Of a stretch of DNA of 64,000 nt, positions 3,258-55,102 are shown one piece after another. Every line of letters starts with the position of its first letter. Within the stretch, counting starts at the first letter, position 1. This DNA is from an uncultured virus (IMG/VR IMGVR_UViG_3300040751_001717) (taxonomy: Duplodnaviria > Heunggongvirae > Uroviricota > Caudoviricetes), in IMG/VR virus record IMGVR_UViG_3300040751_001717. One strand, written 5' to 3'. Below the pieces are notes generated by a model. It saw only the letters and a list, made by a program, of their open reading frames with translations, made no database searches and was not told the DNA's origin. The translations under genes were made by a program, and so were the position numbers.

Positions 3258-3295
3258 TGTTTAAACTTTTTATGTATATTTGATTATAAACCAAC
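3258..3295 (+). promoter_or_regulatory. promoter of the rightward module; Bacteroidota-type -7 box
   Basis: GTATATTTG at 3274-3282 matches TAnnTTTG; GTTTAAAC palindrome just upstream; AAACCAAC leader at 3288-3295. Confidence 0.6.
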
Positions 3296-3305
3296 TTTAA
3301 ATATT

Positions 3306-3563
3306 ATGGCAAAAAAGCAAAACCCTGCTGTTGAGGAAGAAATGAATGAAAAGGATTTCGCTCAACAAAAACAAGAGCTCATTGAATTCTACAATGACGC
3401 CGTTCCACAATTAGAAGCACAATTGCAATATGAAGATCTTGCTGCCGATGTAGAAGAAGCTAGACTTCGTAGATTGATGGCACAGATGAGAATTGCACAG
3501 TTAATGGCACCACCTCAAGAAGAAGAAGGTGAACTAGCTCCAAGAACCTTAAAGAGAAAGTAG
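3306..3563 (+). CDS. conserved-looking coiled-coil hypothetical protein
   Basis: 85 aa, first gene after the divergent region. Confidence 0.85.
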   Translation: MAKKQNPAVEEEMNEKDFAQQKQELIEFYNDAVPQLEAQLQYEDLAADVEEARLRRLMAQMRIAQLMAPPQEEEGELAPRTLKRK

Positions 3564-12244: not shown

Positions 12245-12272
12245 TTAATGAGAAAGACATAAACCAACAGTT

Positions 12273-13508
12273 ATGAGCGAATTAAACCAACAAACAACAG
12301 TTAGTGAAGTAGAAGTTGATGATCTTGATGCCTTATTTGATGGGGCTCCTGGTGCAGACAGCGTTACTTTACCAACTGAAGAAACTAAAAAACCTAACGT
12401 TCTTTCAAATGCGGGCGCAGTAGATATGAGTTTCCTAGAAGGTGACTCGGAAGAAGCTGCTGAAGAAGAGACAGAAAACTCTACTGAAGATGTTGCTGAA
12501 ACTAAAGAAGATCCTAATGAGATTCTTGCAGAGTTAGATGCAACAGATGAAGAAGAGGTAGTTGAAAAGAAGAAAACGGGGAGAGCTAAAAAAGGTGATC
12601 CTATTAGCATTTTTAACAAGCTTTTTGAGGATGAAGTTATCATTCCTTTTGATGATGATAAAGGTCTTGAAGAGTACTCTGTAAATGACTGGAAAGAGCT
12701 AATTGAAGCTAACTACGCAGAACGCGAAAAAAAGCTTCAAGAAGAAGTACCACGTCAGTTCTTTGAAGCGCTTCCTGAAGAACTTCAGTATGCTGCTAAA
12801 TATGTGATGGACGGTGGTCAAGATCTTAAAGGTTTGTTCCGTGCATTGTCTTCTGTTGAAGAACAGAGACAACTGGATGTATCAAACGAAAATGATCAAG
12901 AAAGAATTGTACGTCAATATTTACAAGCTACAGGTTTTGGTAATGATGCAGAAATTGCAGATGAAATCGAAACATGGAAAGATCTAGGTAGACTTGAGCA
13001 ACAAGCTAAGAAGTGGAAACCTAAGTTGGATGCTATGCAAGAAGAAGTGATTGCACAGAGACTTGCAGAACAAGAACAAATGAAGGCACAACAAGAAAAA
13101 GCTTCTCAAGATTACATGGACAATGTATATACTGCACTGAAAGAAGGCGAGCTTAACGGTGTTAAGTTGGATAAAAAAACACAATCTGCTTTATACGCAG
13201 GTTTGGTTCAACCTAACTATAATTCAGTTCGTGGAGGACAAACTAATCTCCTCGGTCACCTTTTAGAAAAATATCAGTTTGTAGAACCTAACTACACTTT
13301 GATTTCTGAAGCGTTGTGGCTGCTATCTGATCCGGAAGGTTACCGCGGTAAGATTGCAGAGATTGGTAAAAAAGAAGCAGTTGAGAAAACAGTAAGACAG
13401 CTTAAGACAGAGCAGTCTAAACGTTTGAGCTCTACTGCTCCTGAAGAAAAGGAAACCAAAAAAGGAAGATCGATTCCTAGACAGAATAATATTTTTAAAA
13501 GATTTTAA
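12273..13508 (+). CDS. acidic scaffold-like head assembly protein
   Basis: 411 aa, very acidic N-terminus, coiled coils; lies between portal and MCP. Confidence 0.7.
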   Translation: MSELNQQTTVSEVEVDDLDALFDGAPGADSVTLPTEETKKPNVLSNAGAVDMSFLEGDSEEAAEEETENSTEDVAETKEDPNEILAELDATDEEEVVEKKKTGRAKKGDPISIFNKLFEDEVIIPFDDDKGLEEYSVNDWKELIEANYAEREKKLQEEVPRQFFEALPEELQYAAKYVMDGGQDLKGLFRALSSVEEQRQLDVSNENDQERIVRQYLQATGFGNDAEIADEIETWKDLGRLEQQAKKWKPKLDAMQEEVIAQRLAEQEQMKAQQEKASQDYMDNVYTALKEGELNGVKLDKKTQSALYAGLVQPNYNSVRGGQTNLLGHLLEKYQFVEPNYTLISEALWLLSDPEGYRGKIAEIGKKEAVEKTVRQLKTEQSKRLSSTAPEEKETKKGRSIPRQNNIFKRF

Positions 13509-13539
13509 CAACAACTATTAATTTTTAATCTCTAAAACA

Positions 13540-15165: not shown

Positions 15166-15195
15166 ATCGGGGGGAGTAAAATCCCTCCGATTTTT
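15166..15195 (+). terminator. intrinsic terminator after MCP
   Basis: ATCGGGGGGA-GTAAAA-TCCCTCCGAT followed by TTTT. Confidence 0.8.
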
Positions 15196-15264: not shown

Positions 15265-15299
15265 ACTAAGTTTACCATAACTTAAATTAAACCAACATT

Positions 15300-17648: not shown

Positions 17649-18797
17649 ATGGCTTACTTTCCACATGCCTATCAAAAACTCCTAGTAGCTAAGGCTCTTG
17701 CAGGTGCAGGAAAAGCTTCTAGCTCTCTAGGAATCGGTGAAGTAGCTCTTTTGAATGCAAAAGACTACATCTCTCTTGCTGCTCCTGCAGCAGGTATCAA
17801 TCAATACATTCTTGCTCAAGGTAGCTTGCATGATGTTGATAAACTTGGACCATTTCACGGTGGTTACAAAGAATCTGTAAAATCTAAAGGAATCAATCCT
17901 CGTTATGTTTCTGACATCTGGGTTTCTCGTGCTTCTGATGAAGTAACTTCTCAGTTAACTGTAGAAGCAGAAGGTGATTGTTTTGCTTGTGGTGTAGAGC
18001 GCTACTTGCGTTTGGACGTTAAAGGTTCTCCTGCTCTTCGTTTCTTAGGTCGTAACGCTTACTTTGTAGCTGATTGGACTGAGAAGTGTTGTGTAGGCGA
18101 TCAAACTTCTGTTGATCCTTTCGTTGTTCTTTCTGCTTGGGCTGATCAAGTTAATGGTGATCCTTTGGTTTCTCCATTTGTTACAGCAGATGTAGAGATG
18201 TGGGATGCTGAAGCTAACGAAGGAGCTGGTGCTTGGGTATCTGCTGTTGGGCACACTGCAACTACTTCTGGTCACGGTAAATTCCGTATCGTTATTAATG
18301 CTAAACCTACTTCAGCCGTATCTACTCACTTCGGTGATGCAGGATTCCGTCCTACTGATCACTATGAGTTGGAGCCTTCTCAGTTGTATGCTTCTGAAGT
18401 TGATGAAACTGGTGACGCTTGTAGCGTAATTTGTACTAGTATTGCACGTACTGTTGGTGTTCAATCTCGTGGTTCTGGTGAATCTGTTATTCGTCAGTTG
18501 ATTTTAAGTAACCGTTACGCTCAAGATCCTTTCCAACAAGATAGCAGAATGCGTGAAATTTTGGATGAAACTGCATTCAAAGTAGATCGTACTGCTAAAT
18601 ACGATATGTTCTATCTACTTCACAGTGTTCCTCGTAAGAGCAACCCTAGTGGTACTATGGATAACGATCAATACTTGATCTCTATCGCTGTTGATGTTGC
18701 TCACGGTTGGACTAACCAACTAGAAGCAATGCTTCTTGAACTAGGTAAACTAGCTGAAATTTATGACGCTGGTGCAGCTGCATTGAAAGAACTCTAA
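17649..18797 (+). CDS. abundant virion protein (auxiliary capsid protein-like)
   Basis: 382 aa with MCP-like codon bias, followed by a strong terminator. Confidence 0.65.
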   Translation: MAYFPHAYQKLLVAKALAGAGKASSSLGIGEVALLNAKDYISLAAPAAGINQYILAQGSLHDVDKLGPFHGGYKESVKSKGINPRYVSDIWVSRASDEVTSQLTVEAEGDCFACGVERYLRLDVKGSPALRFLGRNAYFVADWTEKCCVGDQTSVDPFVVLSAWADQVNGDPLVSPFVTADVEMWDAEANEGAGAWVSAVGHTATTSGHGKFRIVINAKPTSAVSTHFGDAGFRPTDHYELEPSQLYASEVDETGDACSVICTSIARTVGVQSRGSGESVIRQLILSNRYAQDPFQQDSRMREILDETAFKVDRTAKYDMFYLLHSVPRKSNPSGTMDNDQYLISIAVDVAHGWTNQLEAMLLELGKLAEIYDAGAAALKEL

Positions 18798-18819
18798 GAG
18801 TACTTTAAATACAATAACG

Positions 18820-18851
18820 AAAGGGGGTGATTTTCTTCACCCCCTTTTTTT
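18820..18851 (+). terminator. intrinsic terminator
   Basis: AAAGGGGGTGA-TTTTCT-TCACCCCCTTT followed by TTTT. Confidence 0.85.
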
Positions 18852-19472: not shown

Positions 19473-19490
19473 ACACTTAAAACCAACATT

Positions 19491-40980: not shown

Positions 40981-41541
40981 ATGGCAACAATTAATCTTTC
41001 GTGGACTCCAGATAATGGACCCACGTCCGTATCTCAGACCGTTCAGAGAAAGCTTGCAAGCTCCTCTACCTGGGTAGATCTAGCAACAGGGTTAGCTACT
41101 ACGGCTAATAGCTACTCTGATAATACAGCGGTAGAAAACAGTTTGTATGATTACCGCGTTCTTAATGTGTGTTCTGCAGGTGGTCCTACTGCAAGTGGAA
41201 CAGTTCAGGCAGATAAGCTTGTTTGTCCTGCTATTACTACTTCTATTACTTCAGGTGAAGAAGATGTAATTAGCTGGTCAGTAGCGGCAACTACCAATGA
41301 TGCAACTATTGCTACAATTCTTATTATTGATGGCGGTGGCACTACAGTAGAAACAAATACAGTTAATGCAGCAACTGCTCAGTCAGGAACATACGATACT
41401 GGTCAAGACTATGGTGCGACTTATACCGTTAGAGTAAATATTACTGATGGTGTTTTCACAAAAGTTTGTGATCAAACAGTAACTATCGGAACAGCTCCTG
41501 AGTGTGGTGCTCCAACAGGATTGAGTGCAACACCTCAATAA
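40981..41541 (+). CDS. fibronectin type III-like virion protein
   Basis: INLSWTP...YSDNT...YDYRV FN3 pattern, two domains. Confidence 0.8.
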   Translation: MATINLSWTPDNGPTSVSQTVQRKLASSSTWVDLATGLATTANSYSDNTAVENSLYDYRVLNVCSAGGPTASGTVQADKLVCPAITTSITSGEEDVISWSVAATTNDATIATILIIDGGGTTVETNTVNAATAQSGTYDTGQDYGATYTVRVNITDGVFTKVCDQTVTIGTAPECGAPTGLSATPQ

Positions 41542-41555
41542 TAAATAAATAACCT

Positions 41556-42710
41556 ATGGCATCAGTAGTTCTAAACTGGACTCCTGCCGGCGGATTAGTA
41601 ACATCGCAAAAAGTGTATAGAGGTCCCGATCCGGGGTCTCTATCACTTATTGCAACTCTATCTGCTAGCGCTAATTCATATACAGATACGGGTCTTACTG
41701 GAGACGCTGAGTATTTTTATATGGTGCAGTCCATCTGTTCTGTTGGTGGACCAGAGGATAGTACTGTTGTTAGTGTTACAACTCAACAAGCAGTTGCTGT
41801 TAATCTACTTGTAATTCCTAACGCTCCTCCTCAAGCTAATAGTGATAATATTCTACAGTCTCAAGGAACTGTTGATTCTATTATACAAGGAGGTATTAAT
41901 CCTATCTCTAGTTCTTGGAGTGTGATGGGGTGGTTTAGGATGGATCACAAGGTTACAGAGTTGCAACAAACTAATACTGAAGATATTGCTGATACAGTTC
42001 TTTTTGCAATAGAAGAAGATTATGACAGTATTGCACAAAATCCAGGTAATTATGATGTTGGTCATTTAGTAATATATAGAGAGGCGAGCAGCTCTGGTGA
42101 TTATCTTACTGTAGAGTTACAAGACAATAATGCTAATAAAATTAGATATCAGTATTTATTATCTAGCGGCTCTAATAACAATATTACTGGTATAACTGGA
42201 CCTTTCCCAAATGTTTATTGGGATGATACTGTAACCGGTAATAATGGTCTAATCCATATCGCGGTTACATATAACCCCTCAGCATCTCTGGTGAATAGAG
42301 TTACAGTATATTGGAACTCACAAGCACTGACCATATCTTCCGTACCTTATAACTCACCACCTTCAGATTCAGGTTGGAGTTCTAATAGTAAAAGAATAAC
42401 ATTAGGTTGGGCAGCTGAAGTAAGCATTGGTTATTCAGGACACAGCTTAAAAACATCTGTTGATGAATTAGGATTCTATAATAGCGTTCTTAATTCAACT
42501 TCTGTATTTACCGGTTATAATAATAATACTATAGAAATACAGTCTAACCTTCCTAGTTTAGCTCCGACACTAGAGTGGAGTTTTGAACAAGACGGGGCTG
42601 AAAATAGTGGTAAGAGTGCAGCAGACATTCTTTTTAACAATCCTCCAGGAGTACAACCTTATGGGGAGGGACCTTATGTCTTCCCAGCTAACCAGCCTAT
42701 ACCTCAGTAA
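41556..42710 (+). CDS. FN3 plus LamG-like domain protein
   Basis: N-terminal FN3 paralogous to the previous gene; WSVMGWF, HIAVTY and DELGFY LamG motifs. Confidence 0.8.
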   Translation: MASVVLNWTPAGGLVTSQKVYRGPDPGSLSLIATLSASANSYTDTGLTGDAEYFYMVQSICSVGGPEDSTVVSVTTQQAVAVNLLVIPNAPPQANSDNILQSQGTVDSIIQGGINPISSSWSVMGWFRMDHKVTELQQTNTEDIADTVLFAIEEDYDSIAQNPGNYDVGHLVIYREASSSGDYLTVELQDNNANKIRYQYLLSSGSNNNITGITGPFPNVYWDDTVTGNNGLIHIAVTYNPSASLVNRVTVYWNSQALTISSVPYNSPPSDSGWSSNSKRITLGWAAEVSIGYSGHSLKTSVDELGFYNSVLNSTSVFTGYNNNTIEIQSNLPSLAPTLEWSFEQDGAENSGKSAADILFNNPPGVQPYGEGPYVFPANQPIPQ

Positions 42711-42741
42711 AACATTATTTTTTATGTTTTTCTAGGTATAA

Positions 42742-42758
42742 TTTGTATATTATAGTGT
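42742..42758 (+). promoter_or_regulatory. late-promoter motif
   Basis: TTTGTATATTATAGTGT. Confidence 0.6.
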
Positions 42759-42805
42759 GGGTGTTCTGCTCCCAGCAGATATTCTTATAAAAAATTATAA
42801 TTAGG

Positions 42806-44302
42806 ATGATTCCAGTAGCAACAAGCAATGATAATAACGGATGTGTACCAACATCTTCGAATTGCATTATCTGGCAAGGACCGGACATCCCTTGCATTAA
42901 TATCTGTCATGGAGATAATGTATCTGAGGTAGTCTATAAACTTGCAACAGAACTATGTGATGTTCTCGACAAAACTAATCTACAAACTTTAGATCTAAGC
43001 TGTTTACAGCTTGCACCAGATGACACACCTACAAACTTGTCTGAATTTAATCAGATGATTGTAGATCAGCTTTGTTCACTTGGTGGTCGCTGTGATGCGT
43101 TAGAAGGCGGATCAGGCGGTGGAGGAACAACTGAGGATACTATTATTCAATTTGCTTCTTGTTTTTCTCCAGCAACTGAAGGTACTGTAGAAGAGTATGC
43201 AGTATTAATTGGTACAAAAGTTTGTGACCTTGTTTCAGAAATTCTCACAATTAACTCAACTCTTGTACAACATAATACAAGAATTACTGCGTTAGAAAAC
43301 GCAGATAACAGTTTTACACTACCTCAAGTAACTCCTACCTGTGTTCTTACACCTACACCTCAAGACATGGATGTAGTGTTAGAAGCATTGGAAGAGGAGT
43401 TTTGTGAATTAAAAGAAGCTACTGGTACTGCTTCTCAGCTTATTGCAGCTACAGGAGATCAATGTCCTAATTTAAGTGCAGCTGATAGACTATCAGGATC
43501 AGGTACAATGGCAAGTATTCCCGGTTGGAATACTCAGGTGGTTAACCTTTCTCATTCAATTTCTAACCTTTGGTTAGTTATTTGTGATATGAGAACTGCT
43601 CTAGAAAACGTGATGGACTGTTGCGCTACAGATTGTACAGATATCATTCTTGTTATGTCATCTAGTTTGAATCCAGATGGTACAACACTTACAATTGATT
43701 TTACAGGAAGCGTTATTCCTTCAGACTTTATTTCATGTAATCCTTTAGGATCCCTAATTACGGTTACCGATTCTTCAGGAAATACATACACAGAAAGAGC
43801 CGTTATATCAAATCTTGTAGATTTTAATACAGCTCTTACAGTTAATCTAAACACGACTTCTCTTACACCTGGAAGCAATTTAACTATTGCACTAGATCAT
43901 TGTGTAGGTAATGGTCAGATTACATGTGAAAAACGCATTACAGATACTGTTATTAACGGTACAAGCTGTCCTTCATTAGAGAATACAATAGGTATTACTA
44001 ATATTGACTACGCATTCTTACACACTCAAGGATCTGGTGTAAGCTACATCATTGATCTTCTTGACATGAATGATAATGTGATTGCAACTAAAACACATAA
44101 TAACCAACCTAACGGAACATTAAGTGGTTCATTCACAAGCTTAACTTCTGCCACGAACTATAAACTTAGAGCATCTGTAGTAGTGAGCGGACAAGCAAAT
44201 ACGGTTTGTCCTGCTATGCAGGTAACTACACTGAGTGATGGTAATGGAGATTCTTGTGCACTACCAACTGATGTTACTGTTACAATTGATCCAGGAACGT
44301 AA
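42806..44302 (+). CDS. Cys-rich virion fibre-like protein with C-terminal FN3
   Basis: 498 aa, 23 Cys by my count; coiled-coil segment HNTRITALEN; FTSLTSATNYKLR FN3 strand. Confidence 0.75.
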   Translation: MIPVATSNDNNGCVPTSSNCIIWQGPDIPCINICHGDNVSEVVYKLATELCDVLDKTNLQTLDLSCLQLAPDDTPTNLSEFNQMIVDQLCSLGGRCDALEGGSGGGGTTEDTIIQFASCFSPATEGTVEEYAVLIGTKVCDLVSEILTINSTLVQHNTRITALENADNSFTLPQVTPTCVLTPTPQDMDVVLEALEEEFCELKEATGTASQLIAATGDQCPNLSAADRLSGSGTMASIPGWNTQVVNLSHSISNLWLVICDMRTALENVMDCCATDCTDIILVMSSSLNPDGTTLTIDFTGSVIPSDFISCNPLGSLITVTDSSGNTYTERAVISNLVDFNTALTVNLNTTSLTPGSNLTIALDHCVGNGQITCEKRITDTVINGTSCPSLENTIGITNIDYAFLHTQGSGVSYIIDLLDMNDNVIATKTHNNQPNGTLSGSFTSLTSATNYKLRASVVVSGQANTVCPAMQVTTLSDGNGDSCALPTDVTVTIDPGT

Positions 44303-44952
44303 TGGCAAATTTAGTTTTAACATTTACAACTAGCGGGGCAAGTAGCTATAAGATAACCTATCAAAAGGATGGTGGTACTACCTATACGGAGTATACCTCA
44401 ACATCCCCATGGACTCTTAATAATATTACTTGTGGTACTTACAGTGGTACTATAACTGCTATTTGTGATGAGGGCGAGAATTGTACTGAATATGCTATTA
44501 ACAATCCAAGTATGGATAGTGATGGTGATGTAGAGTACACTGATTGCGCAACAGGAAACCTTACAACTCAGGCAGTTACATACGGTGCAAATTTTATAGT
44601 TTGCTCTAGGACAGTACCTCAAATATTTAATGGAGCTAGTGCAGCTACTGTAAGTGTACGAGGTAATTGTGGTGATCCCTATGATGTGGAGCAAAGCACT
44701 AGTATTGCTTGGACTCAAGATTACACAGATTGTTACTACTACTTTAAAGTTACACCTTGTGTAGCTGAAGCACCTGTACCTATTAATAACGATGTATACA
44801 CTACAGACTCTACGTTGCAAATAGGTGACGTTGTAACTCTTACAGGATCTGCTTATGCTGGATACTGCTATACACTTAGTGATCTTAGTTCTGCTACATC
44901 GGGTGTAGTCATAGCAATGCAACAAACAGATTGTAATTCCTGTCTAACTTAA
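44302..44952 (+). CDS. Cys-rich beta-domain virion protein
   Basis: 216 aa, 11 Cys; coupled to the previous gene. Confidence 0.75.
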   Translation: MANLVLTFTTSGASSYKITYQKDGGTTYTEYTSTSPWTLNNITCGTYSGTITAICDEGENCTEYAINNPSMDSDGDVEYTDCATGNLTTQAVTYGANFIVCSRTVPQIFNGASAATVSVRGNCGDPYDVEQSTSIAWTQDYTDCYYYFKVTPCVAEAPVPINNDVYTTDSTLQIGDVVTLTGSAYAGYCYTLSDLSSATSGVVIAMQQTDCNSCLT

Positions 44953-44967
44953 TAAATAATATATAAC

Positions 44968-45483
44968 ATGGCTTGTGCAAATTGTGGATGTAACGATCAT
45001 GCTCTAACAACTGGAGTAACTTATCAGCTAGGAACAGATGCTTGCCCTGCGGGAGAAGCTTGTGATCAGATTCTTGCTTCAGAGTGTGTGGTTTACTCTG
45101 GAGACAAGCTAGTAGACTTTCCTCTAGAAGATGGGGAGAGAGTCGAAATTACTCTTAAAAAACTTATTATGTACCACTTAGATTCTGCAGCATTGTTTGG
45201 ATCTAATGGTATTCATGCACCTTATAATGTAGAATCTTTTAAGATTACAGATACCACTATTGATATTGAGTGGGATGCTGTAGCTAACGTAAGTGATTAT
45301 ACAGTTTCTATTGCTCCTGCAACAACAGGAGTTTATGTAGATGAAACTGTTGCTAACAACGTGACTAAGCATTCATTTATCAACTTAGCTCCTGAAACAG
45401 CTTACTACATTAAAGTAATAGCTAACGGTATTGGTGTTAATTACAGCTCACTTGTAATTAGCGTTACCACAGCTAAATCATAA
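44968..45483 (+). CDS. Cys-rich protein with C-terminal FN3
   Basis: MACANCGC N-terminus; IDIEWD...NLAPETAYYIKV FN3. Confidence 0.8.
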   Translation: MACANCGCNDHALTTGVTYQLGTDACPAGEACDQILASECVVYSGDKLVDFPLEDGERVEITLKKLIMYHLDSAALFGSNGIHAPYNVESFKITDTTIDIEWDAVANVSDYTVSIAPATTGVYVDETVANNVTKHSFINLAPETAYYIKVIANGIGVNYSSLVISVTTAKS

Positions 45484-45484
45484 A

Positions 45485-45547
45485 AGTCACGGTTTGTTGG
45501 TTTTACGTGACTAACAAGGAGAACCCTCACTTCGGTGGGGGTTTTCT
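45485..45547 (+). ncRNA. candidate 3'-UTR small RNA: seed hairpin plus terminator
   Basis: perfect 7-bp stem AGTCACG/CGTGACT with loop GTTTGTTGGTTTTA complementary to start-codon-proximal AAACCAAC(A) sites. Confidence 0.55.
45519..45547 (+). terminator. intrinsic terminator with C(UUCG)G tetraloop
   Basis: GAGAACCCTCAC-TTCG-GTGGGGGTTTTC. Confidence 0.8.
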
Positions 45548-45593
45548 GCTTTAAAAAAATTACTATATTAGAAGAACTAAAATATAACCGCGT

Positions 45594-46847
45594 ATGTCTC
45601 AAAAGGTTAGAGAAGTATTAAGATTACTTTCTCAAAAAAAATCAAATACACTACTTGCTGAAAAAGCAGGTTTGAATCTAGATGAATTCTTAGATATTAA
45701 AAATCAGGTTTTAGTTTTAAGAAGATTGTTTGGTGACGATGACGAAATGATTGTGAGTGCTTACCATAATCTTTCTAAGCTTGAAGATACAGATAATAGC
45801 GCTTTAGAATCAAGTATAGATATAGAAAAAGGAACAGCTACTTTTAAAGCTACGGTAAGTGAAGAACCTAAATCACCTGAAGATATTATTCGACTTCTTA
45901 ATATTGATACAGATGAGTGGAAATTATCTCAATATTGGAATAAACAGCGATCGGATGGTTGGTTTATTTCAGCACTAGTTAGTAAAAAGAAACATGAAGA
46001 ATCAGACTACCTGGAGCACCTTATTAAAAATTGGTCTCCAAAACCCACAAGGATTACTCAGCTTGCTTCCGCTTTTGATGAGACTTTGGAAAATACAGCT
46101 GCGGTTATATCTCTTCAAGATATACATTTTGGTAAAGAAGGGAACCACTCTATAGCGGATGATTTCATTTCAACAGTAGTAGACCTTGTCTCAAGAGCTA
46201 AACGAATAGCTAACTTAGATAAGGTCTTTTACGTTGTAGGAGGTGACCTGCTCAATATGGACACCTTTGCAGGAACTACTACAAGCGGTACTCCTGTAAG
46301 TAATTCGCAATCTGCTATGGATACCTATGTGGAAGCATTTGACGCGTTACACTGGTCTATAGGGTACATTAAATCGCACTGCAGACATTTAGATGTGGTG
46401 TACATTCCGGGTAATCATGATAGGTTGTCATCATTTCATCTAGCACATGCTCTATCTAAGTCTTATGAAGACATGAACATTACTTGGCACGTAGACTATA
46501 CTGAAAGAAGAGTACTTAAATATGGGGATAACTTCTTTGCATTTGAGCATGGAGATACGAATACTAAAAACTCTCTTCTTATTTATGCTACTGAGAATCC
46601 TTCTGAGTGGGGATCAACTAAGTACAGAACTCTATATACTGGGCACCTCCACACAAAAAAGAAGATAGAGTATATTACAGAAGATGAGAAGACAGGTTTC
46701 TCTATTAAAATCCTTCCATCTTTATCTAGATCTGACTACTGGCACTATCACAATAAGTTTACTGGAAACAAGCGAGCAGGCGTTTTAGATTTGCACCATC
46801 CGGAAAAAGGATTACTTTGTGAGCTTATATCCGTATTAGATAAGTAA
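45594..46847 (+). CDS. calcineurin-like metallophosphoesterase
   Basis: all five motifs present: DIH, GDL, GNHD, HGD, GHLH. Confidence 0.9.
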   Translation: MSQKVREVLRLLSQKKSNTLLAEKAGLNLDEFLDIKNQVLVLRRLFGDDDEMIVSAYHNLSKLEDTDNSALESSIDIEKGTATFKATVSEEPKSPEDIIRLLNIDTDEWKLSQYWNKQRSDGWFISALVSKKKHEESDYLEHLIKNWSPKPTRITQLASAFDETLENTAAVISLQDIHFGKEGNHSIADDFISTVVDLVSRAKRIANLDKVFYVVGGDLLNMDTFAGTTTSGTPVSNSQSAMDTYVEAFDALHWSIGYIKSHCRHLDVVYIPGNHDRLSSFHLAHALSKSYEDMNITWHVDYTERRVLKYGDNFFAFEHGDTNTKNSLLIYATENPSEWGSTKYRTLYTGHLHTKKKIEYITEDEKTGFSIKILPSLSRSDYWHYHNKFTGNKRAGVLDLHHPEKGLLCELISVLDK

Positions 46848-46870
46848 TTCTCTTTCATACCTAGTCGTTT

Positions 46871-46882
46871 TTTCGTAAATTA
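46871..46882 (+). promoter_or_regulatory. late-promoter motif
   Basis: TTTCGTAAATTA, 19 nt before the ATG. Confidence 0.55.
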
Positions 46883-46900
46883 TAATGTACTCCAGTATAA

Positions 46901-47485
46901 ATGAAGCAATTTAGAGCACCGAACTTAAATGCACCTAGATTTAGAACTAAAAGATTAAACTTTTTAAACAGTTCATTACTAGAAGAATTTAAAGTAAAGT
47001 ACCCGTATCATTCAGACTTGGAGCTGCAAACGTTCTCAGACATAATTAAATTGTTTAACGGAATGATCTGGCAAACAGTAATTGACTACAGAGATGGAGT
47101 TGAGTTACCAGAAAGTTTAGGTCACCTGTTTATAGGAACCTGCCCCACTTCTAAAAAAGTGAATGTAGATTTTAAAAAAAGTAAAGAGTACGGTAAAGTA
47201 ATTCAGAACAAGAATTGGGATACCGATAACAAACTGGCTAAAATATTCTACACTAACTACTATCAGAAGTATAGATTCGCGAATCGTGAGCTTTGGGGAT
47301 TTGAACCTGTACGGCAATTTAAGAGAACAGTAGCTTCAGTCTATCCTGATAATTATCAGAGATACGTTATAATGAAACCTGGTGTTAGGATTTCTACATT
47401 ATATAAGAAGGCGATGGACGTTCATCAAAAAAAAGAACGTGATCAAATTCGACTGGAAGAGTACGATGAGTTTAAATTAGATTAA
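46901..47485 (+). CDS. divergent HU/IHF-like protein of the tail module
   Basis: GVELPESLGHLFI and F.P.R.FKR motifs; crAss-like position before the tail ring genes. Confidence 0.65.
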   Translation: MKQFRAPNLNAPRFRTKRLNFLNSSLLEEFKVKYPYHSDLELQTFSDIIKLFNGMIWQTVIDYRDGVELPESLGHLFIGTCPTSKKVNVDFKKSKEYGKVIQNKNWDTDNKLAKIFYTNYYQKYRFANRELWGFEPVRQFKRTVASVYPDNYQRYVIMKPGVRISTLYKKAMDVHQKKERDQIRLEEYDEFKLD

Positions 47486-47486
47486 G

Positions 47487-48158
47487 ATGACCACAATAGG
47501 AGAAGTAGTATCTAGAGTCCGCAATCAGATTAAGTCTGTAAAGCAGGACCCGTTCATTACGGACAGATACTTATACAGCATCATACTTAAGTACACTGCA
47601 TTATACATGAGAAGACAAGATTCTCAGAATAAGTTAATGCGTTTCAATAGTGTATTTCAAACACTACCTTATGTAGAGCTAATTGATATAGATACAATTG
47701 AAGCACAGTGCTCTGGTATTTCTTCTGGTTGTACAATTAAAAGAACAAAACATAAACTCCCCAACTTTATGCAAGGTTACTGGGGACCTATTATTAGAAC
47801 GGTTAGCTCTATTGATAAATCTATTGAGCTACAACCTACACATCCTGGTTTGTATACTTCTATGACTAAGACGACTTCGTTTAAGTATAATACTACGAAG
47901 TACTTTTGGTTTTTAAATGGTTACCTCTATATGCCTAACATCGAATGGGATGCTATTCTTATTGAGGGTGTATTTGAAGAAGACATTACCAAGTGGAACT
48001 GTGACCCTGAAGATGATTGTGATCCTCGTCAGGTTCAACCGTTTAATGTGCCCGACTTCTTGTTTGCAGAGATTGAGCAAAACGTACTTAAAGATATTAT
48101 GAGTACTGCAGCAATTCCTTCAGACGATTTCCATGATAATCAGAATATTGCAAGGTAA
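47487..48158 (+). CDS. tail ring / adaptor protein
   Basis: 223 aa; YFWFLNGYLY motif; position before the tail tubular and muzzle genes. Confidence 0.65.
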   Translation: MTTIGEVVSRVRNQIKSVKQDPFITDRYLYSIILKYTALYMRRQDSQNKLMRFNSVFQTLPYVELIDIDTIEAQCSGISSGCTIKRTKHKLPNFMQGYWGPIIRTVSSIDKSIELQPTHPGLYTSMTKTTSFKYNTTKYFWFLNGYLYMPNIEWDAILIEGVFEEDITKWNCDPEDDCDPRQVQPFNVPDFLFAEIEQNVLKDIMSTAAIPSDDFHDNQNIAR

Positions 48159-50314
48159 TGTACACGGTAAAGTATAGAACATTCGACCAACTCCTTGAAG
48201 ACGTAAGCATTGATTTCGGTGCTTATAGTCTAGAGGGCATGATTGAACCACAACAGTTAATCAAAGTTGCTCTTAGGGTGAACTATGATTTAGGTTTAAG
48301 AATTCATCAGCAAAAAGAGATATTGCTTGATATTGAAAAAGGAAAAGCAAAGCTGCCTTCCGATTTCTATGTTCTAAACTTTGCTTACCAGTGTGGCAGT
48401 TATGAAGTTAAAGAGTGGGTTCCTAGCGGTACTCACATTGAGGAGAAAATTATTGCTCCCGCTGCAGACTGTGTAACTACGCCACCTGTGACAACTACAG
48501 AGACTGTTAGTACAACTACAGAAACTACAAGTGAAGGTACACCTGAAGTTACTCAAACTATTGAACACCCTGCGGTAACAGAAACTATTGAACATCCTGA
48601 AGTTCCTGGAGGATTTAATTCCTATAGTTCAGATTATACAAGTAATGCGCTAGGTTCTCAAGTTGTTTACAACTCAGGAAGAGATGAGTTTCTTTTGGTT
48701 CAAGCTTACAGTAATCCTACTGTTGCTTGGCCTGTTTCTGCAACTGATGGAACTGAAGGTAATAGTATTACTTATTCAAAAGAATGGAGAAATTTTACAC
48801 ATATTCCAGAGCTTGGTGTTTTCGTAGCAGGTACTCCCGGTGTTGTTAATTTTATGGGATTGTTTAGGGATACAGATTACTCTCTTATCACTGAAATTAC
48901 AATGGTGGATGCCAACGGTAGTGGTGCTTGGTACTTTAGTTACGATGCGGATAATGGTTGTGTTTGGGCAATGCAGCAATATAGTACTGCAAGACACATT
49001 AGAGTCAACATTACACCTACTAGCTTAACTGCTCATTCATATACAGATGTTCCTAGTTTAGGTTCTCACACTAACAATAGCGCATTAATCTATAAAAATG
49101 GAAAGCTTTATAGATTTTCATATGCAAGTGGTGGTAGTACTTCTCAAGGATTTAATACGGATGTTACTGTTTCACCAGTACCAAATGGGTTTCCTGATGG
49201 AGCAAATATAGAACGATACACTAACGGAAACGGTATTTGGTATGCTGCTGGTTACATATATAAACCACAACCCCTTGGTGAAAGACCTGTAGCTTATGAT
49301 CCTGAAAGTGGATTATTCTGGATAAGATTTGATGCTGCTTCTGCAGGATCATACATATTTACATGGGATCCTACTGATGGTTCTTGGGATCACATTAAAA
49401 ACATCGGGTTTAATAATTATACAGATGGATCCATTATATATGATTCTTACGGAAAGAATATTATATACAGTGACACTACTACAACTGAAGTAATTGATCC
49501 TGCAGATGGGAGTTCAGTTGCTACATTAAATTTCCTTAGTGCGGATATTGCAGCTTCAAGCTCAAATGGTAATCTACTTCTTGCTAGAAACAATTCGGAT
49601 ACTGGTGTTTTGGCATCTGCTAGCTACACAGAAGGTACCCCTGCGTACACAGAAACTGTTGTAATTACTCCAGCTTACACAGAGACCGTAGTGGTTAGTC
49701 CTGCAGTTCCTGGTGAGACTACTTCTGAAACTGTTACTACAACAACCACCACTACAAGTGGAGTTGATGAATTGTATCAGTGTCAACCTGAAGGAACCTG
49801 TCTTACTCAATGTGGTGAGTATTACCAACTAATTCATAAAGACAAGTATGAAACTAAAATCTATAAGACCTTTGGGTCTCTCCCCATTAAAGCTAGCAGC
49901 AGTCTTGATCGCGCTTGTCCTAATACCTGTAATAGCAGCACCCCTAACGCTGCGGAAATCGTGGGAGGTTTTCTTAAAACTCCTTTCAAAACTGGGCAAG
50001 TATATCTTAACTATCAAGGAGCGCTGGAAGACGAAAATGGTCAACTTATGGTACTGGATCACCCGATGATCAACGAGTACTATGAATATGCAATCAAACA
50101 ACGTATCCTTGAAAGCATGTATTTTGCTGGAGAAGATGTTGTTCAGAAAATGAACTTAGTCGAGCAACGTTTACGCGCTGCTAGAAATAATGCTCTTTCT
50201 ATTGTTAATACTCCAAATTTTGCAGAGCTCAAAAAGATTTGGGAAGTAAATAGAAAAGCGCAGTATCACAAATATGTGAACATGTTTAAGAGCTACCCTG
50301 TAATTCAACGATAA
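48158..50314 (+). CDS. tail tubular/ring protein with a large inserted beta-propeller-like domain
   Basis: ring-like N-terminus (GKAKLPSDF) and C-terminus (GQVYLNY...YYEYAIK) split by a ~430-aa insert flanked by Thr/Pro-rich linkers. Confidence 0.7.
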   Translation: MYTVKYRTFDQLLEDVSIDFGAYSLEGMIEPQQLIKVALRVNYDLGLRIHQQKEILLDIEKGKAKLPSDFYVLNFAYQCGSYEVKEWVPSGTHIEEKIIAPAADCVTTPPVTTTETVSTTTETTSEGTPEVTQTIEHPAVTETIEHPEVPGGFNSYSSDYTSNALGSQVVYNSGRDEFLLVQAYSNPTVAWPVSATDGTEGNSITYSKEWRNFTHIPELGVFVAGTPGVVNFMGLFRDTDYSLITEITMVDANGSGAWYFSYDADNGCVWAMQQYSTARHIRVNITPTSLTAHSYTDVPSLGSHTNNSALIYKNGKLYRFSYASGGSTSQGFNTDVTVSPVPNGFPDGANIERYTNGNGIWYAAGYIYKPQPLGERPVAYDPESGLFWIRFDAASAGSYIFTWDPTDGSWDHIKNIGFNNYTDGSIIYDSYGKNIIYSDTTTTEVIDPADGSSVATLNFLSADIAASSSNGNLLLARNNSDTGVLASASYTEGTPAYTETVVITPAYTETVVVSPAVPGETTSETVTTTTTTTSGVDELYQCQPEGTCLTQCGEYYQLIHKDKYETKIYKTFGSLPIKASSSLDRACPNTCNSSTPNAAEIVGGFLKTPFKTGQVYLNYQGALEDENGQLMVLDHPMINEYYEYAIKQRILESMYFAGEDVVQKMNLVEQRLRAARNNALSIVNTPNFAELKKIWEVNRKAQYHKYVNMFKSYPVIQR

Positions 50315-50326
50315 GAACATTGCGAT

Positions 50327-53300
50327 ATGGCTAAGCAATCTGGTAACCTACCACAAACGTCCAGTATTAAAACTAATACTGTAAATAAGGGTATGATGAA
50401 AGACCCTAACCCTGGGTTTATTCCGGAGGGTTCATGGTCTCATGCTAGAAATGCTACACATAACCACGAAGATGGTGATCTTGGTGTGCTGTCTAATGAG
50501 CAATCAAATTTCTTTTGTACAGCAGCTCCCTACACAATTATAGGTGTAATTCATTTATATGAAGATGTTTGGGCGGTGTTTTCTACAGACAACACTAATT
50601 CTGAGATAGGTACATTTAAAGAGTCTTCTTGTCAGTATACTAAAGTAGTTAATGCGTCTTGTTTGAATTTCAAGACTACTAATCTCATTAAAGGAGCATC
50701 TAAAGAAAATGCTGACTGTACCTGGCAAGTGTACTGGGATGACGGGCTAAATCCGTCTAGAACTTTAAACCTTGATGAAGTACCTTGGAAAAAGATTGCA
50801 ACCACAGTTAATGATTGTACTACCTATGTAGATACAGAAGAACTTGATTGTGATCAAATTCGTATTGCGAGATTAGTTGATCCCCCTTGTATAGAATTAA
50901 ATGCTGCATTAGACGGGGGTCAGCTTGTTAATGGTACGTATCAGGTATTTGCAGCATATACTGTAGATCAACAAAGAGTTACCGATTATGTCGGATACTC
51001 TAATACACAGTCTCTTTACACTCATGATAATGTAGAAAGCTCATTAATAGTAGACATCAAAGAGATGGATACTCGTTTTGATGAGTTTGTATTAGTGGTA
51101 GTAAAGTTTGCAAATGGTCAGACAATTGCAAGACAGTTTGGTTATTATAGTACTAGAAGTAGTAGAATTACAATTGACTACTTAGATGAGAGCTTAGTCG
51201 TTGTTCCTCTTTCTGAACTTGTAATTAGCAATCCCGCTTTTGAGAAATCAGAAGCAATGTTTGCAGCAAACGGCTATCTTTTTAGGAATGCACCATCAAT
51301 GCGATTTGATTTCAACTATCAACCGATAGCGAATCAGATAAAAGCAAAATGGGTTTCTACAGAGTTTTCTACAGAATATTATAGAAACGCTGGTAACGTT
51401 GTAGGGTATCTTAGAGACGAGCAGTATAGCTTTTTTATTAGATGGATTTACAATACAGGAGATAAGTCAGCATCTTATCACATTCCTGGTAGAGCTCCTT
51501 CTACTAGTGATTTACAATTAGTTTCAGGTGAAGATGCGCTCCCTGTTTCTTCAGGAACACCGAGAAGGTGGCAGACTTATAACACAGCAACACTTACTCC
51601 TACAACACAAGGTATTTTACCTAATGGTGGTTATGTAATTCAAGAGGGTAATATGGGTTACTGGGAATCTACAGAAAGATATCCAGATAATCGTCCAGAT
51701 ATTTGGGGAGATCTTTGCGGTAAGCCTATTAGACATCATAAGTTTCCTGAAGAGTGTTTACACCAATCACTAAAACTTGTAAATGACGATGCTAGTAAAA
51801 TCAGAGTACTTGGTGTTAGATTTGAAAACATTAAACCACCTGTAGATAATGATGGTAATTTAATACAGGGCGTTGTAGGATATGAAATTTTAAGAGGCTC
51901 TAGAGAGGGTAATAAATCTATTGTTGCAAAAGGCATACTCAATAATATGGGTGAGTATACAATACCAGGAAGCGATAATAAAAAAGCGTTATATCCTAAC
52001 TACCCTTATAACGATTTAAGAATTGATCCGTTCCTTTCAGCTGAAGAAACTAAAGGGGCATGTAGGCTATCTAAGCAAGGTTACAAAGAGCTAGGTACAT
52101 TTAAGAGGGATCATCTTACTTTCCATTCTCCAGATACTTCATTTAAGCACCCGTTCCTTTCACCAACAGAGTTAAAGGTATATGCTGAATATCGAGGTAC
52201 CACTACTGGTAGATTTAAACCTGTAGATAAACATCCTGAGCATAAGTTATTGAGAGACACTGCGTTTGCAGCATCATTGCTGCTAGGTATTGGTTATGCA
52301 ATGACTCAAATGTATGGTTGTACTACTACTAAGGTTACAGATAACTCAATGAGGAATGAAGGTTCGGAAAGTCCACTTGGTGTTGGTACTAAAGGTGTTA
52401 CAGCACTTATAAGAAGTGGTTTAATTGCTGGAGGTAAAGCAATATTGAATGCCGCTTTAAATAATATAGTTGCCGGGTTAAAGGCAGGAGATATGTTTAT
52501 TTCTGGTGGTAGCCTTTCTGGTGGTTTAGAAAGAGGTGCTAGAGCAGTGTTTAATACTGTAGCTGATGTAGTACCTATGACTAACGGTAGTACTACAGAA
52601 AGAGAATATGGCTGTACAGATACACTGCAGATTCCTGGAGTTGTTAGAGCAATTAATGCTACAGCACTTGCAGTTTATCATACAGCAAATGGGGCTAATA
52701 GAATCATGGAGTCCATTAAAAATATACTGCCCTACAGACAATATGGGTACCAGTATGTTTCTCACGGTTACTATAACACATCAGTTTGTGCACCTTTAGG
52801 ATCTAAGAGAAAACTAATTGATGACTCGGTTTACTTGAGCTCACATATACAAGAGTTTTCGCTTACAAGAGTAAACAATCTATTTAGAGGGTCTACGGTT
52901 GCTCTCAAACTTGACAGTGATCTGGGAGTACCTAGTCTTAATGACACAAGTAGATATACTATTGGTGATCGAAACGCTTGGAAAGATCCTACAAAAGAAT
53001 TTGTAGGTAATACAATCTCTTCTTTATATGCCGGTCTTAAGTTTAATTTTGAGAATCAGTATGGTCAGCTTGATAATATTATGCAGATTCCTATTAGTAC
53101 TTGTTACCAGGAATCAGAGATTGTAGATGCTAACCAGAAATTTAAGAGTGCCGTACTTTTTAATGGAGACACTTATGTAGGTAGATACACTGAAAAAAAT
53201 ACTTTCTTTTATTTCTACGACTGGTTGCATACACAACCTAATGGTGCAGAAAGAGATTATAGAAAATACTATAATGTAGGGTACCCTAGATTTTGGGCGA

Positions 53301-55102
53301 ACACTGTACCGTATGACTTTAGTGAGTTTTTTAGTGGTATTGTTAAATTTGATTTTAGCGATGCTTTTCCAAGTGACGATCATGCTTTAGATGGTAATCC
53401 ACAAAGGTGTGGTATTAGAGGTTTGTCATTTATGGCTAAAGACAAATACTTCTACCTATTTAATTCAGGAGTTAAAGATTTCTGGGTAGAGTCTGAAATA
53501 AATCTAGCATATCGTGATCATGATGATACAATAGCAAGTAGACACTATGACTATGAAAAGTATACAGATCTAGATTCTCTATTCCATTCTGACATCATTA
53601 AGTCGGTGAATCATTATAAGTATGATTACTCTTTAAGCAATACAAAATACTTCGGTAATTTAATTAGCTGGGGTTTCCTACAGACTAGAGACTATGATCC
53701 TACTGTAGCAGAAGAGTGTTACACTAAATACCCAACTAAGCTTCTTTATAGTTTGCCAGCTACAATGACAACTAAAGATGCTTGGAGAATGTTCCTTCCT
53801 TTGAATCATTATGATTTTGAGGATGAGATTGTTTCATTAAAAGAAATTAATCAAACGGGATCTTTGATATTATTCAAAGCTTCCTCACCCATGCAGTTCA
53901 GAGGCTTAGATACTCTTCAAACTGATATGGGAACTAAAATCACTATTGGTGATGGTGGGTTATTTGCTAACCCTCCTCAGAGACTGCTCAACTCTGATAA
54001 ATCATTTGAGTATGGTAGCTGTCAAAACCGTCTCTCTGTAGTATCTACTCCTGGTGGTGTATTCTGGGCTTCTCAGAATCAAGGTAAAATATTTAACCTA
54101 GGATCCGGTGTTGTAGATATTACTAGAGCGGGGATGAAATGGTGGTTTGCTAAGTATATGCCTTATCAGATCACTACACAATATCCTGATTACGAGGTAC
54201 TTGACAACCCTGTAGATGGTGTAGGTATTCAAACCATTTATGATAATACAGATGAGGTTGTCTACTTTACTAAGAAAGACTTTGTTGTTAAACCGGAGTT
54301 TGTAGAAAGAATAACTTACTTATCAGGTAATAAGTTCTTAGTTAATGGGGTTCTTACAGTTAGTGGTGGAGATTCGCAGTTCTTTGATAGCGCAAGTTGG
54401 ACAGTTAGTTATGATCTTAAAACTAAAGAGTTCGTTTCATTTCATGACTGGCATCCTGATCTAACCATTCCTGGTAAGAATCATTTCCTTTCTACTAAGG
54501 GTTCTGATATCTACAAGCATAATGACACGTGTACTAGTTACTGTAATTTCTATGGTGTAGATTATCCATTTGAAATTGAGTTTATTTCATCGACTGGTCA
54601 GATGGTGAACACAGTTCGTAGTTTCCAATACTCTATTGAGGCACATAACTATACAAACGACTGTAGAGACTCACACCACGTATTAGATGAAAACTTTGAT
54701 GAAGCTATAGTATATAACTCGGAGCAGGTATCTGGTTTGTTAAAACTAAACCTAACTCCTAAAAATGATGCACCGGCTATTATTACATATCCTAAAGTGA
54801 ACACTAACTCTATCGACATTCTTTACTCTAAAGAAGAACAGATGTATAGATTTAATCAGTTCTACGATATTACTGATGATAGAGGTGAGTTTACAAATGT
54901 TCGTAGATCAATTTGGAATACTGCACCAAACGGATATATTAGTACGTTGAACCCGGCTAACTTAAACTATGCTAAAGATGCTCACGAGCATAAGAAGTTT
55001 AGACATTATGTAAACAGGGTGCTTTTAAGAAAAACTGTTTCTGGAAACAACAAGTACACTGTACGTCTAAACAACACAAAACTTAATCTATCATTACGAT
55101 GA
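50327..55102 (+). CDS. tail muzzle/nozzle (stabilisation) protein
   Basis: 1591 aa, beta-rich; KGMMKD...ARNA start, RDEQYSF, GDTYVGRY and SFHDW motifs; position after the ring genes. Confidence 0.8.
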   Translation: MAKQSGNLPQTSSIKTNTVNKGMMKDPNPGFIPEGSWSHARNATHNHEDGDLGVLSNEQSNFFCTAAPYTIIGVIHLYEDVWAVFSTDNTNSEIGTFKESSCQYTKVVNASCLNFKTTNLIKGASKENADCTWQVYWDDGLNPSRTLNLDEVPWKKIATTVNDCTTYVDTEELDCDQIRIARLVDPPCIELNAALDGGQLVNGTYQVFAAYTVDQQRVTDYVGYSNTQSLYTHDNVESSLIVDIKEMDTRFDEFVLVVVKFANGQTIARQFGYYSTRSSRITIDYLDESLVVVPLSELVISNPAFEKSEAMFAANGYLFRNAPSMRFDFNYQPIANQIKAKWVSTEFSTEYYRNAGNVVGYLRDEQYSFFIRWIYNTGDKSASYHIPGRAPSTSDLQLVSGEDALPVSSGTPRRWQTYNTATLTPTTQGILPNGGYVIQEGNMGYWESTERYPDNRPDIWGDLCGKPIRHHKFPEECLHQSLKLVNDDASKIRVLGVRFENIKPPVDNDGNLIQGVVGYEILRGSREGNKSIVAKGILNNMGEYTIPGSDNKKALYPNYPYNDLRIDPFLSAEETKGACRLSKQGYKELGTFKRDHLTFHSPDTSFKHPFLSPTELKVYAEYRGTTTGRFKPVDKHPEHKLLRDTAFAASLLLGIGYAMTQMYGCTTTKVTDNSMRNEGSESPLGVGTKGVTALIRSGLIAGGKAILNAALNNIVAGLKAGDMFISGGSLSGGLERGARAVFNTVADVVPMTNGSTTEREYGCTDTLQIPGVVRAINATALAVYHTANGANRIMESIKNILPYRQYGYQYVSHGYYNTSVCAPLGSKRKLIDDSVYLSSHIQEFSLTRVNNLFRGSTVALKLDSDLGVPSLNDTSRYTIGDRNAWKDPTKEFVGNTISSLYAGLKFNFENQYGQLDNIMQIPISTCYQESEIVDANQKFKSAVLFNGDTYVGRYTEKNTFFYFYDWLHTQPNGAERDYRKYYNVGYPRFWANTVPYDFSEFFSGIVKFDFSDAFPSDDHALDGNPQRCGIRGLSFMAKDKYFYLFNSGVKDFWVESEINLAYRDHDDTIASRHYDYEKYTDLDSLFHSDIIKSVNHYKYDYSLSNTKYFGNLISWGFLQTRDYDPTVAEECYTKYPTKLLYSLPATMTTKDAWRMFLPLNHYDFEDEIVSLKEINQTGSLILFKASSPMQFRGLDTLQTDMGTKITIGDGGLFANPPQRLLNSDKSFEYGSCQNRLSVVSTPGGVFWASQNQGKIFNLGSGVVDITRAGMKWWFAKYMPYQITTQYPDYEVLDNPVDGVGIQTIYDNTDEVVYFTKKDFVVKPEFVERITYLSGNKFLVNGVLTVSGGDSQFFDSASWTVSYDLKTKEFVSFHDWHPDLTIPGKNHFLSTKGSDIYKHNDTCTSYCNFYGVDYPFEIEFISSTGQMVNTVRSFQYSIEAHNYTNDCRDSHHVLDENFDEAIVYNSEQVSGLLKLNLTPKNDAPAIITYPKVNTNSIDILYSKEEQMYRFNQFYDITDDRGEFTNVRRSIWNTAPNGYISTLNPANLNYAKDAHEHKKFRHYVNRVLLRKTVSGNNKYTVRLNNTKLNLSLR

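Follow-up and report, generated by a model that had tools for sequence, protein, structure and literature searches.

Does a short hairpin behind the last tail-fibre gene of an uncultured phage address the starts of other genes of the same phage? crAss-like phages rank among the most abundant phages known; their hosts mostly lack Shine-Dalgarno pairing, and how messages are selected for translation is an open question. To our knowledge, almost nothing has been described about the post-transcriptional control of gene expression in these phages. The hairpin lies in a 64,000-nt stretch of IMG/VR virus record IMGVR_UViG_3300040751_001717 (hereafter the window, meaning the whole stretch analysed). 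An earlier note, made from the letters of this DNA, had described the hairpin as a candidate phage small RNA (sRNA) whose loop is antisense to the start-codon regions of several phage genes. The analysis reported here confirms the observation and, by comparison with relatives, partly supports the sRNA interpretation.

The genes of the window are those of the structural half of an uncultured crAss-like phage. PHROGs recognise the terminase, portal and major head protein genes, long tail-fibre genes and very large virion proteins in the window. Among cultured phages, the portal protein is nearest to that of Leptolyngbya phage Lbo-JY46 (33% identity), and it is 23-28% identical to the portal proteins of crAss-like phages of Bacteroides, Flavobacterium and Cellulophaga. 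A Shine-Dalgarno sequence was found at 0 of the 53 gene starts listed in the window, and several genes in the window and its relatives are preceded by TAnnTTTG-type boxes, a consensus that presumably points to a Bacteroidota host. Together, the missing Shine-Dalgarno sequences and the TAnnTTTG-type boxes fit a host among the Bacteroidota, which probably has neither Hfq nor Shine-Dalgarno pairing. Because blastn against cultured phages gave no match to the window DNA, relatives were reached through proteins. Genome-wide counts were made on the window plus three complete relatives.

The element follows directly on the last gene of the tail-fibre block, an FN3-type gene of 171 aa (44968..45483, plus strand; from the open reading frame list, with a weak PHROG match to a tail protein). 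The stop codon of this gene is the TAA at 45481-45483, and the hairpin begins 1 nt later. This hairpin, P1 (45485..45512, plus strand), has a perfect 7-bp stem, AGTCACG (45485-45491) with CGTGACT (45506-45512), which presents a 14-nt loop at 45492-45505, GTTTGTTGGTTTTA in DNA and GUUUGUUGGUUUUA in RNA, with the invariant core UUGGUUU. A 5-nt linker (45513..45517, plus strand), longer and carrying GUUG in most relatives, leads to a second hairpin with a 13-bp stem and a UUCG loop (45518-45547), followed by the U-rich tail UUUUCUGCUUU. It is this second hairpin only that has the make-up of an intrinsic (Rho-independent) terminator (45518..45552 with its tail, plus strand), as seen in the fold and in the terminator that also stands 3' of the hairpin in relatives. 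All of the coordinates that the earlier note had assigned to the stem, loop and terminator behind the last FN3 gene proved exact. The 85-nt stretch as a whole folds with a minimum free energy of -29.8 kcal/mol (z = -5.1), a stability reached by none of 200 shuffles. Its conserved right-hand neighbour is an exonuclease-like gene of 417 aa (45594..46847, plus strand; PHROG 704, DNA repair exonuclease, E = 3.5e-43).

P1 is also the sole match in the window to R1, a covariance model made from the alignment of relatives described below (44.8 bits, E = 2e-8). In a search of the whole window against Rfam 15, no family reached its gathering threshold, which agrees with the earlier note, where no described family had been recognised. 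The best sub-threshold scores within 45380-45640 (22 bits against 114, and 21 bits against 35) reflect the hairpin-plus-terminator layout only. A place in the 3' untranslated region and use of the mRNA's own intrinsic terminator, as found here, are features of 3'UTR-borne base-pairing sRNAs, a class defined by function.

Contigs from RNA libraries also touch the locus. The data are Logan contigs of four salt-marsh metatranscriptome runs, of low depth and with possible DNA carry-over; the four runs contain 5-6% of the sampled words of 41000-50000, and run contigs of depth 2-6 cover parts of 41000-44400. The hairpin is covered in one of the four runs, by two contigs over 45289-45518 at depth 3-5, which end at 45511 and 45518, and none extends into the 1.9 kb of 45519-47442. 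Contigs of such low depth show neither transcription nor RNA ends nor RNA levels. One of the hairpin contigs comes from a variant strain and carries an extra T in the loop.

The downstream exonuclease-like protein served as the anchor for relatives, and the best 80 of 226 IMG/VR stretches were kept. In 78 of these best 80 loci, the exonuclease-like gene is closely preceded by a hairpin that has this loop and is itself followed by a terminator; 75 were found by script and three by eye (L001, L002 and L080), and the remaining two (L031 and L043) have almost no upstream DNA. The order of stop codon, hairpin and terminator is the same in relatives, where the homologous C-terminus of the FN3-type gene again precedes the hairpin. 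The loop core, GTTGGTTT, is almost invariant, though the exonuclease-like protein is only 47-60% identical in the best 80 of the 226 loci. The stems, by comparison, vary freely, with AGTCACG/CGTGACT, GTGGTGG/CTACTAC, GTGATGG/CTATCAC, GTAGAG/CTCTGC, TCAGG/CCTGA, ACTGG/CCAGT and AGAGGG/CCCTCT among their forms.

This variation preserves pairing. In an alignment of 50 distinct sequences, two-sided changes occur at 8 of 8 stem pairs (49 cells), and the covariation score of 0.452 (0.253 in shuffles) is reached by none of 500 shuffles; sliding the partner by 1-3 columns as a control brings the score to 0.21 or below. RNAalifold, run on 22 diverse full-length sequences, recovers the stem independently, and all 22 share the loop letters TTT and GTTGGTTTT. 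G.U pairs are frequent in the stems and would be A.C mismatches on the other strand; they fit plus-strand RNA only. The earlier note had asked for an invariant loop on a covarying stem in related phages, and with a near-invariant loop and every stem pair covarying this expectation is borne out; such a loop also agrees with the conserved, exposed seed expected of a 3'UTR-borne sRNA. Most relatives have in addition an outer helix, P0, in which CAAC 5' of the hairpin pairs with GUUG 3' of it (4 pairs, 81% of cells paired, two-sided changes at 4 of 4 pairs). P0 is weak in the window itself.

Each genome among the window and the three complete relatives has exactly one strong match to R1. The model is too strict, having missed the short-stem forms of four genomes (G007, G008, G014 and G015) that were then found by eye; a missing R1 match is therefore not a missing element. 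An IMG/VR scan for the 14-mer GGTTTGTTGGTTTT returned at least 118 stretches, with 12 true hairpins by the model among the 80 loci listed, and such a scan was rejected as a census of the element.

What the loop might address can be read from its complement. Matches to it lie at 19478, 15289, 12261, 12284 and 3288, exactly where the earlier note had placed them, and all of them are on the plus strand. The scaffold-like gene (411 aa), which lies between the portal and capsid genes, has the box AAACCAAC at 12261..12268 (a 9-nt match, AAACCAACA, at 12261-12269), 4 nt before its ATG at 12273, with a box-loop duplex of -11.2 kcal/mol. A second copy, the 12-nt loop complement AAACCAACAAAC at 12284..12295, falls in codons 4-8 of the same gene, so that ATG 12273 stands between the two boxes; an in-frame copy resembling the second one is found in several relatives too. 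The 336-aa gene that comes next after the capsid gene is preceded by AAACCAAC at 15289..15296 (9-nt match AAACCAACA, 15289-15297), 3 nt before ATG 15300 (-11.1 kcal/mol). A small CxxC (zinc-ribbon-like) open reading frame starts at ATG 19491, 2 nt beyond the box TAAAACCAACA at 19478..19488, which gives the strongest duplex (-12.7 kcal/mol). This box sits in an 18-nt gap 3' of the preceding stop codon, which is a translation-level position. Finally, AAACCAAC at 3288..3295 lies 10 nt before ATG 3306, the start of an 85-aa gene that is the first of the plus-strand block, and 5 nt after a TATATTTG box; its duplex with the loop is -9.6 kcal/mol. On the minus strand, the weaker AACCAAT sites that the earlier note had listed, at 1135-1129 before ATG 1121 and at 46-40 before ATG 29, are present as described and do not, as far as seen, mark conserved targets.

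How much of this exceeds chance depends on where one looks. The window has 8 copies of the box AAACCAAC where 2.5 would be expected, a count reached in 1 of 100 shuffles, and four of the six copies on the plus strand have an ATG 3-10 nt downstream. When up to 3 mismatches are allowed, the complete 14-mer shows no enrichment in the window (16 against 11.8; 13 of 100 shuffles reach 16), and the antisense copy in the loop, taken alone, is within chance expectation for the window. Inside the window alone, only the core exceeds chance, and the case is moderate. The four tagged starts take ranks 1-4 of 53 in loop duplex energy, where the median is -5.7 kcal/mol; with shuffled loops of the same composition, at least three starts at -10.5 kcal/mol or better are obtained in 36 of 300 cases (window alone). 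U/G-rich loops pair easily with A-rich leaders. Because the significance of the duplex energies in the window alone is weak, the case rests on conservation, and it is by virtue of conservation in relatives that we judge the loop-box match to be more than chance.

The relatives reveal a short word common to these boxes. We counted hexamers in the 35 nt upstream of 372 called genes in four genomes, the window and the three complete relatives. After generic A/T-only words, the top hexamer is AACCAA, seen 32 times against about 4.7-5.5 expected, so that the enrichment at start codons proposed as a check in the earlier note does occur. Of all 15 words made up of four A and two C, AACCAA has the highest enrichment (5.8-fold; unrelated arrangements, 0.7-2.5-fold), and its reverse complement TTGGTT is depleted before starts, with 1 seen against 5.5 expected. 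On one point the earlier note needs correction: the conserved tag is AACCAA, and AAACCAAC is this phage's version only.

The tag is also gene-specific. In the head-module loci of 31 genomes, we counted AACCAA up to 40 nt before the ATG; 30 genomes entered the count, c131 being left out as it has no capsid-sized open reading frame, and its 338-aa orthologue carries the tag. At the 336-aa gene after the capsid gene the tag is present in 29 of 30 genomes, and the sole miss (G022) is a mis-picked open reading frame whose true orthologue is tagged. The scaffold-like gene before the capsid gene has it in 19 of 25 genomes and the small CxxC open reading frame in 15 of 21, as against 1 of 30 for the capsid gene itself and 3 of 152 for all other starts. 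Tandem tags are frequent in relatives. Conserved complementary sites at target starts, as expected of a 3'UTR-borne sRNA, are therefore found in three orthologue sets, compared with 3 of 152 elsewhere. The targets proposed in the earlier note are accordingly corrected to a small, gene-specific candidate set made up of the two capsid-flanking genes and the small CxxC gene.

We also considered the tag as part of a promoter. TAnnTTTG followed within 14 nt by AACCAA is found only 1-4 times per genome, against 0.3-1.4 expected, and this was rejected as a general explanation. Because the link to promoter-like boxes is weak, the tag is assigned to the translation-start region and not to the promoter.

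Whether loop and tag belong together is the central point. Both cores are invariant, and UUGGUUU in the loop is exactly complementary to AAACCAA in the tag. That two independent conserved motifs should be complementary over 6-7 nt by chance is unlikely, at about 0.002-0.01, a figure that allows for loop offsets and base composition and is a rough estimate rather than a computed test. In most of 19 genomes examined, the loop forms its best duplexes with the three orthologues named above (-8 to -13.7 kcal/mol; background, -3 to -7 kcal/mol). There is also an association in the letter next to the core. Where G precedes UUGGUU in the loop, C follows the tag in 23 of 59 boxes, and where A, C or U stands there it does so in 1 of 34 (Fisher p = 5.7e-5, with kinship ignored). 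Loops with A before UUGGUU go with tags followed by T (13) or A (12) and never C, and the C-variant loop (G017) has no G after its tags. This association is suggestive; it comes mostly from one clade of five genomes and may reflect a shared A+T drift. The duplex shared by all is only 7-8 bp long, with two G-C pairs.

Two cultured phages were compared as well. Cellulophaga phage phi14:2 has no hairpin in the matching gap, and AACCAA at its starts is at the level expected (1 against 1.39). In Leptolyngbya phage Lbo-JY46, the syntenic gap keeps TTTGTTGGTTG and the terminator, with a stem of six A.U pairs that is missing from the minimum-energy fold; no other cultured phage was found to have the loop motif. 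Over the 172 called starts of Lbo-JY46, AACCAA shows no enrichment (5 seen, 3.0 expected), and the genes flanking its capsid gene have AAACAA-type boxes, which match only 5-7 nt in the 5' half of the loop. Since Lbo-JY46 keeps the loop motif without enrichment of the tag, the loop motif is older or more widespread than the tag.

With moderate confidence, we interpret the element as a 3'UTR-borne base-pairing RNA whose G/U-rich loop would pair with the C/A boxes and regulate translation, probably negatively. The late tail-fibre/FN3 message would bear this structured RNA in its 3' untranslated end, and the loop would serve as a seed that pairs with the AACCAA tag 0-25 nt before a few fixed starts, namely those of the scaffold-like gene, the 336-aa gene and the small CxxC gene and, in this phage, also that of the 85-aa gene at 3306. 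The acting form may be the mRNA's own 3' end or a fragment trimmed from the mRNA. The pairing would take place in trans, because no message in this phage has both tag and hairpin. None of the genes between 40260 and 44968, the last operon ahead of the hairpin, carries a tag, and cis pairing within one message, in the manner of icaR, was rejected for this phage. As there is no Shine-Dalgarno sequence, the ribosome probably needs an open A/C-rich leader; if the leader must stay open, a duplex at -3 to -20 would most likely block initiation. We envision that head-accessory proteins would in this way be turned down once tail-fibre messages accumulate. Repression seems to us the likelier direction of the effect, ahead of activation.

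The main rival, which we regard as possible though doubtful, keeps the hairpin and the tag and gives up the pairing between them. At the 3' end of the late message, the hairpin would act as a signal for protein binding or processing, AACCAA would be a separate translational enhancer or a site for a protein, and loop and tag would be complementary by accident; in its variants, the hairpin could be the operator of a phage RNA-binding protein, could control read-through of the adjacent terminator into the exonuclease/virion-protein block in the manner of nut/boxB, or could be a stability element. Hairpins recognised by proteins do classically combine an invariant loop with a covarying stem, and the element is always found beside a terminator and one and the same downstream gene. 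In Lbo-JY46 the loop motif persists though the tag is not enriched there, and the shuffled-loop control in the window is weak. Against this, two conserved motifs would have to be exact complements over 6-7 nt by accident, which by the estimate above is improbable; no alternative fold competing with the terminator was seen, and no candidate binding protein was identified. Pairing with the 3' end of ribosomal RNA and a likeness to a tRNA D-loop were entertained too, but nothing emerged in favour of either. The hairpin has also been weighed as a plain tandem terminator or stabilising hairpin whose sequence has no specific role, and its place at an operon end beside a terminator would suit that well. 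However, a loop of 9-12 nt has stayed unchanged while the stem and both flanking genes diverged to ~50% identity, and because the loop is invariant this reading is effectively refuted. A very unlikely alternative moves the motif to the level of DNA, with AACCAA/TTGGTT as a double-stranded site for a phage or host protein, bound in either orientation, and the hairpin copy as one more site. Loop and tags are, at the DNA level, the same motif in opposite orientations, and some boxes lie just downstream of promoter-like TAnnTTTG boxes, a possible place for an operator. Such a site does not explain why the stem covaries and has G.U pairs compatible with only one strand, and the tags at starts are all in the sense orientation, with TTGGTT depleted there; moreover, the TAnnTTTG link amounts to the few cases per genome given above, and one tag lies inside the 18-nt intergenic gap.

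Two further readings accept the pairing and differ from ours in what it does. The RNA could activate its targets, by shielding their 5' ends from nucleases or by recruiting the ribosome or a factor, which we consider unlikely. The targets are abundant virion-assembly genes, for which a late boost would be expected; several boxes lie near predicted 5' ends, just 3' of TAnnTTTG boxes, and the boxes are in tandem in many relatives. Yet, at 0-25 nt upstream of the ATG, the boxes fall within the footprint that a ribosome usually covers, where a duplex with a base-pairing sRNA normally inhibits initiation, and a cursory look at the leaders revealed no inhibitory structure that pairing could open. 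It is also conceivable, at a quite low probability, that the hairpin RNA is a phage-made adaptor for translation initiation in a host that works without Shine-Dalgarno pairing, whose loop, as an anti-tag, would deliver ribosomes to AACCAA leaders or exclude them from these, either by itself or through a bound factor. If true, this would constitute a private, RNA-programmed channel that chooses which late messages are translated, and, in a bacterial virus, a counterpart to the 3'-to-5' RNA pairing over long distances that is seen in some plant RNA viruses.

We return to the base-pairing RNA, with repression as the probable outcome, as the reading that we favour. No description of this hairpin or tag was found in the literature searched, and passages of a preprint on phi14:2 that treat host-polymerase middle and late promoters do not mention such an element (10.1101/2020.03.07.982082). 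If the pairing holds, the element would be the first RNA regulator of virion-gene translation in crAss-like phages within the literature searched, and a new RNA family. A family-wide hairpin and a gene-specific tag would provide a concrete, mutable pair of short sequences for message selection without Shine-Dalgarno pairing.

Among known systems, the element is a member of neither the CpxQ-type RNAs, GcvB nor c4, and it shares features with each. The hairpin of the lambda boxB/nut sites is likewise small, with a sequence-specific loop on a variable stem ahead of a terminator; in boxB, the N protein binds a GNRA-like loop of 5 nt, and boxB is not known to have complementary tags at gene starts. 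For the present element, neither a partner resembling boxA nor a protein resembling N was identified, and only the position before a terminator fits boxB/nut. The c4 antisense RNA of phages P1 and P7 is cut from or carried on an operon transcript, and its loops pair with boxes that overlap ribosome-binding sites and block translation. Here too a phage RNA would be part of an operon transcript, with an exposed loop and short boxes at phage gene starts. In contrast, c4 belongs to an immunity/antirepressor operon of a temperate phage and has its target on the same transcript, whereas the boxes described here lie at distant virion genes of a lytic-type crAss-like genome.

CpxQ, SroC, DapZ and MicL are bacterial base-pairing small RNAs that are borne on or derived from 3' untranslated regions. 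Like these, the element lies in the 3'UTR after a stop codon, shares the terminator of the mRNA and has a short, exposed and conserved seed with sites at the translation starts of several genes. It differs in being phage-encoded, in that its putative targets are the phage's own virion-assembly genes, and in carrying the seed in a large hairpin loop; it has no sequence relation to them, and its host probably lacks Hfq and Shine-Dalgarno pairing. The enterobacterial GcvB RNA has a G/U-rich seed, R1 (not to be confused with our covariance model), that pairs with translational enhancers rich in C and A. This host sRNA is free-standing and depends on Hfq, and its seed is linear, whereas the element described here is a hairpin loop in a phage 3'UTR with three to four candidate targets, and the two are not homologous. 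The likeness lies in a G/U-rich single-stranded seed and C/A-rich boxes at the ribosome-binding regions of several mRNAs, and by the logic of GcvB the AACCAA tag could be both an enhancer of translation and the handle by which it is repressed.

In most relatives (loci L007-L079 of related IMG/VR stretches), the conserved hairpin (window 45485-45512, plus strand) is enclosed by a 4-bp outer helix, formed by CAAC pairing with GUUG (columns 4-7 and 43-46 of the hairpin alignment A2), which accounts for the conservation of both hairpin flanks. Across the relatives in this alignment, the outer helix shows changes on both of its sides. A contig from X3, one of the salt-marsh metatranscriptome runs, carries an additional T in the hairpin loop (window 45500), and window positions 45363-45483 are replaced in the same contig by 122 different letters; a variant strain is therefore present in a salt-marsh sample. 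This strain differs at the end of the upstream gene and has the same hairpin.

The sole cultured carrier of the loop motif that we found is the cyanophage Leptolyngbya phage Lbo-JY46 (PP438436.1), where TTTGTTGGTTG and a strong terminator lie at about 2056-2120 of locus L330, in an unannotated gap upstream of an exonuclease-like gene. We looked for enrichment of AACCAA, the leader tag complementary to the core of the hairpin loop, at the gene starts of this phage and found none.

In some relatives (loci L002, L005, L017 and L038, and genome G004), AACCAA follows a TAnnTTTG-type box in the leader of the exonuclease-like gene, which is the gene directly downstream of the hairpin; the leader of the window's own exonuclease-like gene (45594-46847, plus strand) is without the tag. 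In the genome of one relative, G002, GAAAACCAACAAA is located 19 nt upstream of the ATG of a giant 4887-aa ORF (83915), which may represent an additional, lineage-specific loop target. In the window's capsid-gene leader, the place of AACCAA before the ATG at 13540 is occupied by the box AACAACAAC (13507-13515), resembled by the AACAACAA-type boxes in the capsid-gene leaders of many relatives. The complementarity of these capsid-leader boxes to the hairpin loop extends over 6 nt only (CAACAA), in the 5′ half of the loop.

A terminator downstream of the capsid gene (15169-15187) and a strong two-way terminator downstream of the gene ending at 18797 (18819-18848) split the head module into several transcription units. 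Beyond the hairpin, two very large ORFs of 1591 aa (50327-55102) and 1772 aa (55099-60417) match PHROG "virion structural protein" families, and they occupy what we take to be the position of the virion RNA polymerase block in crAss-like phages.
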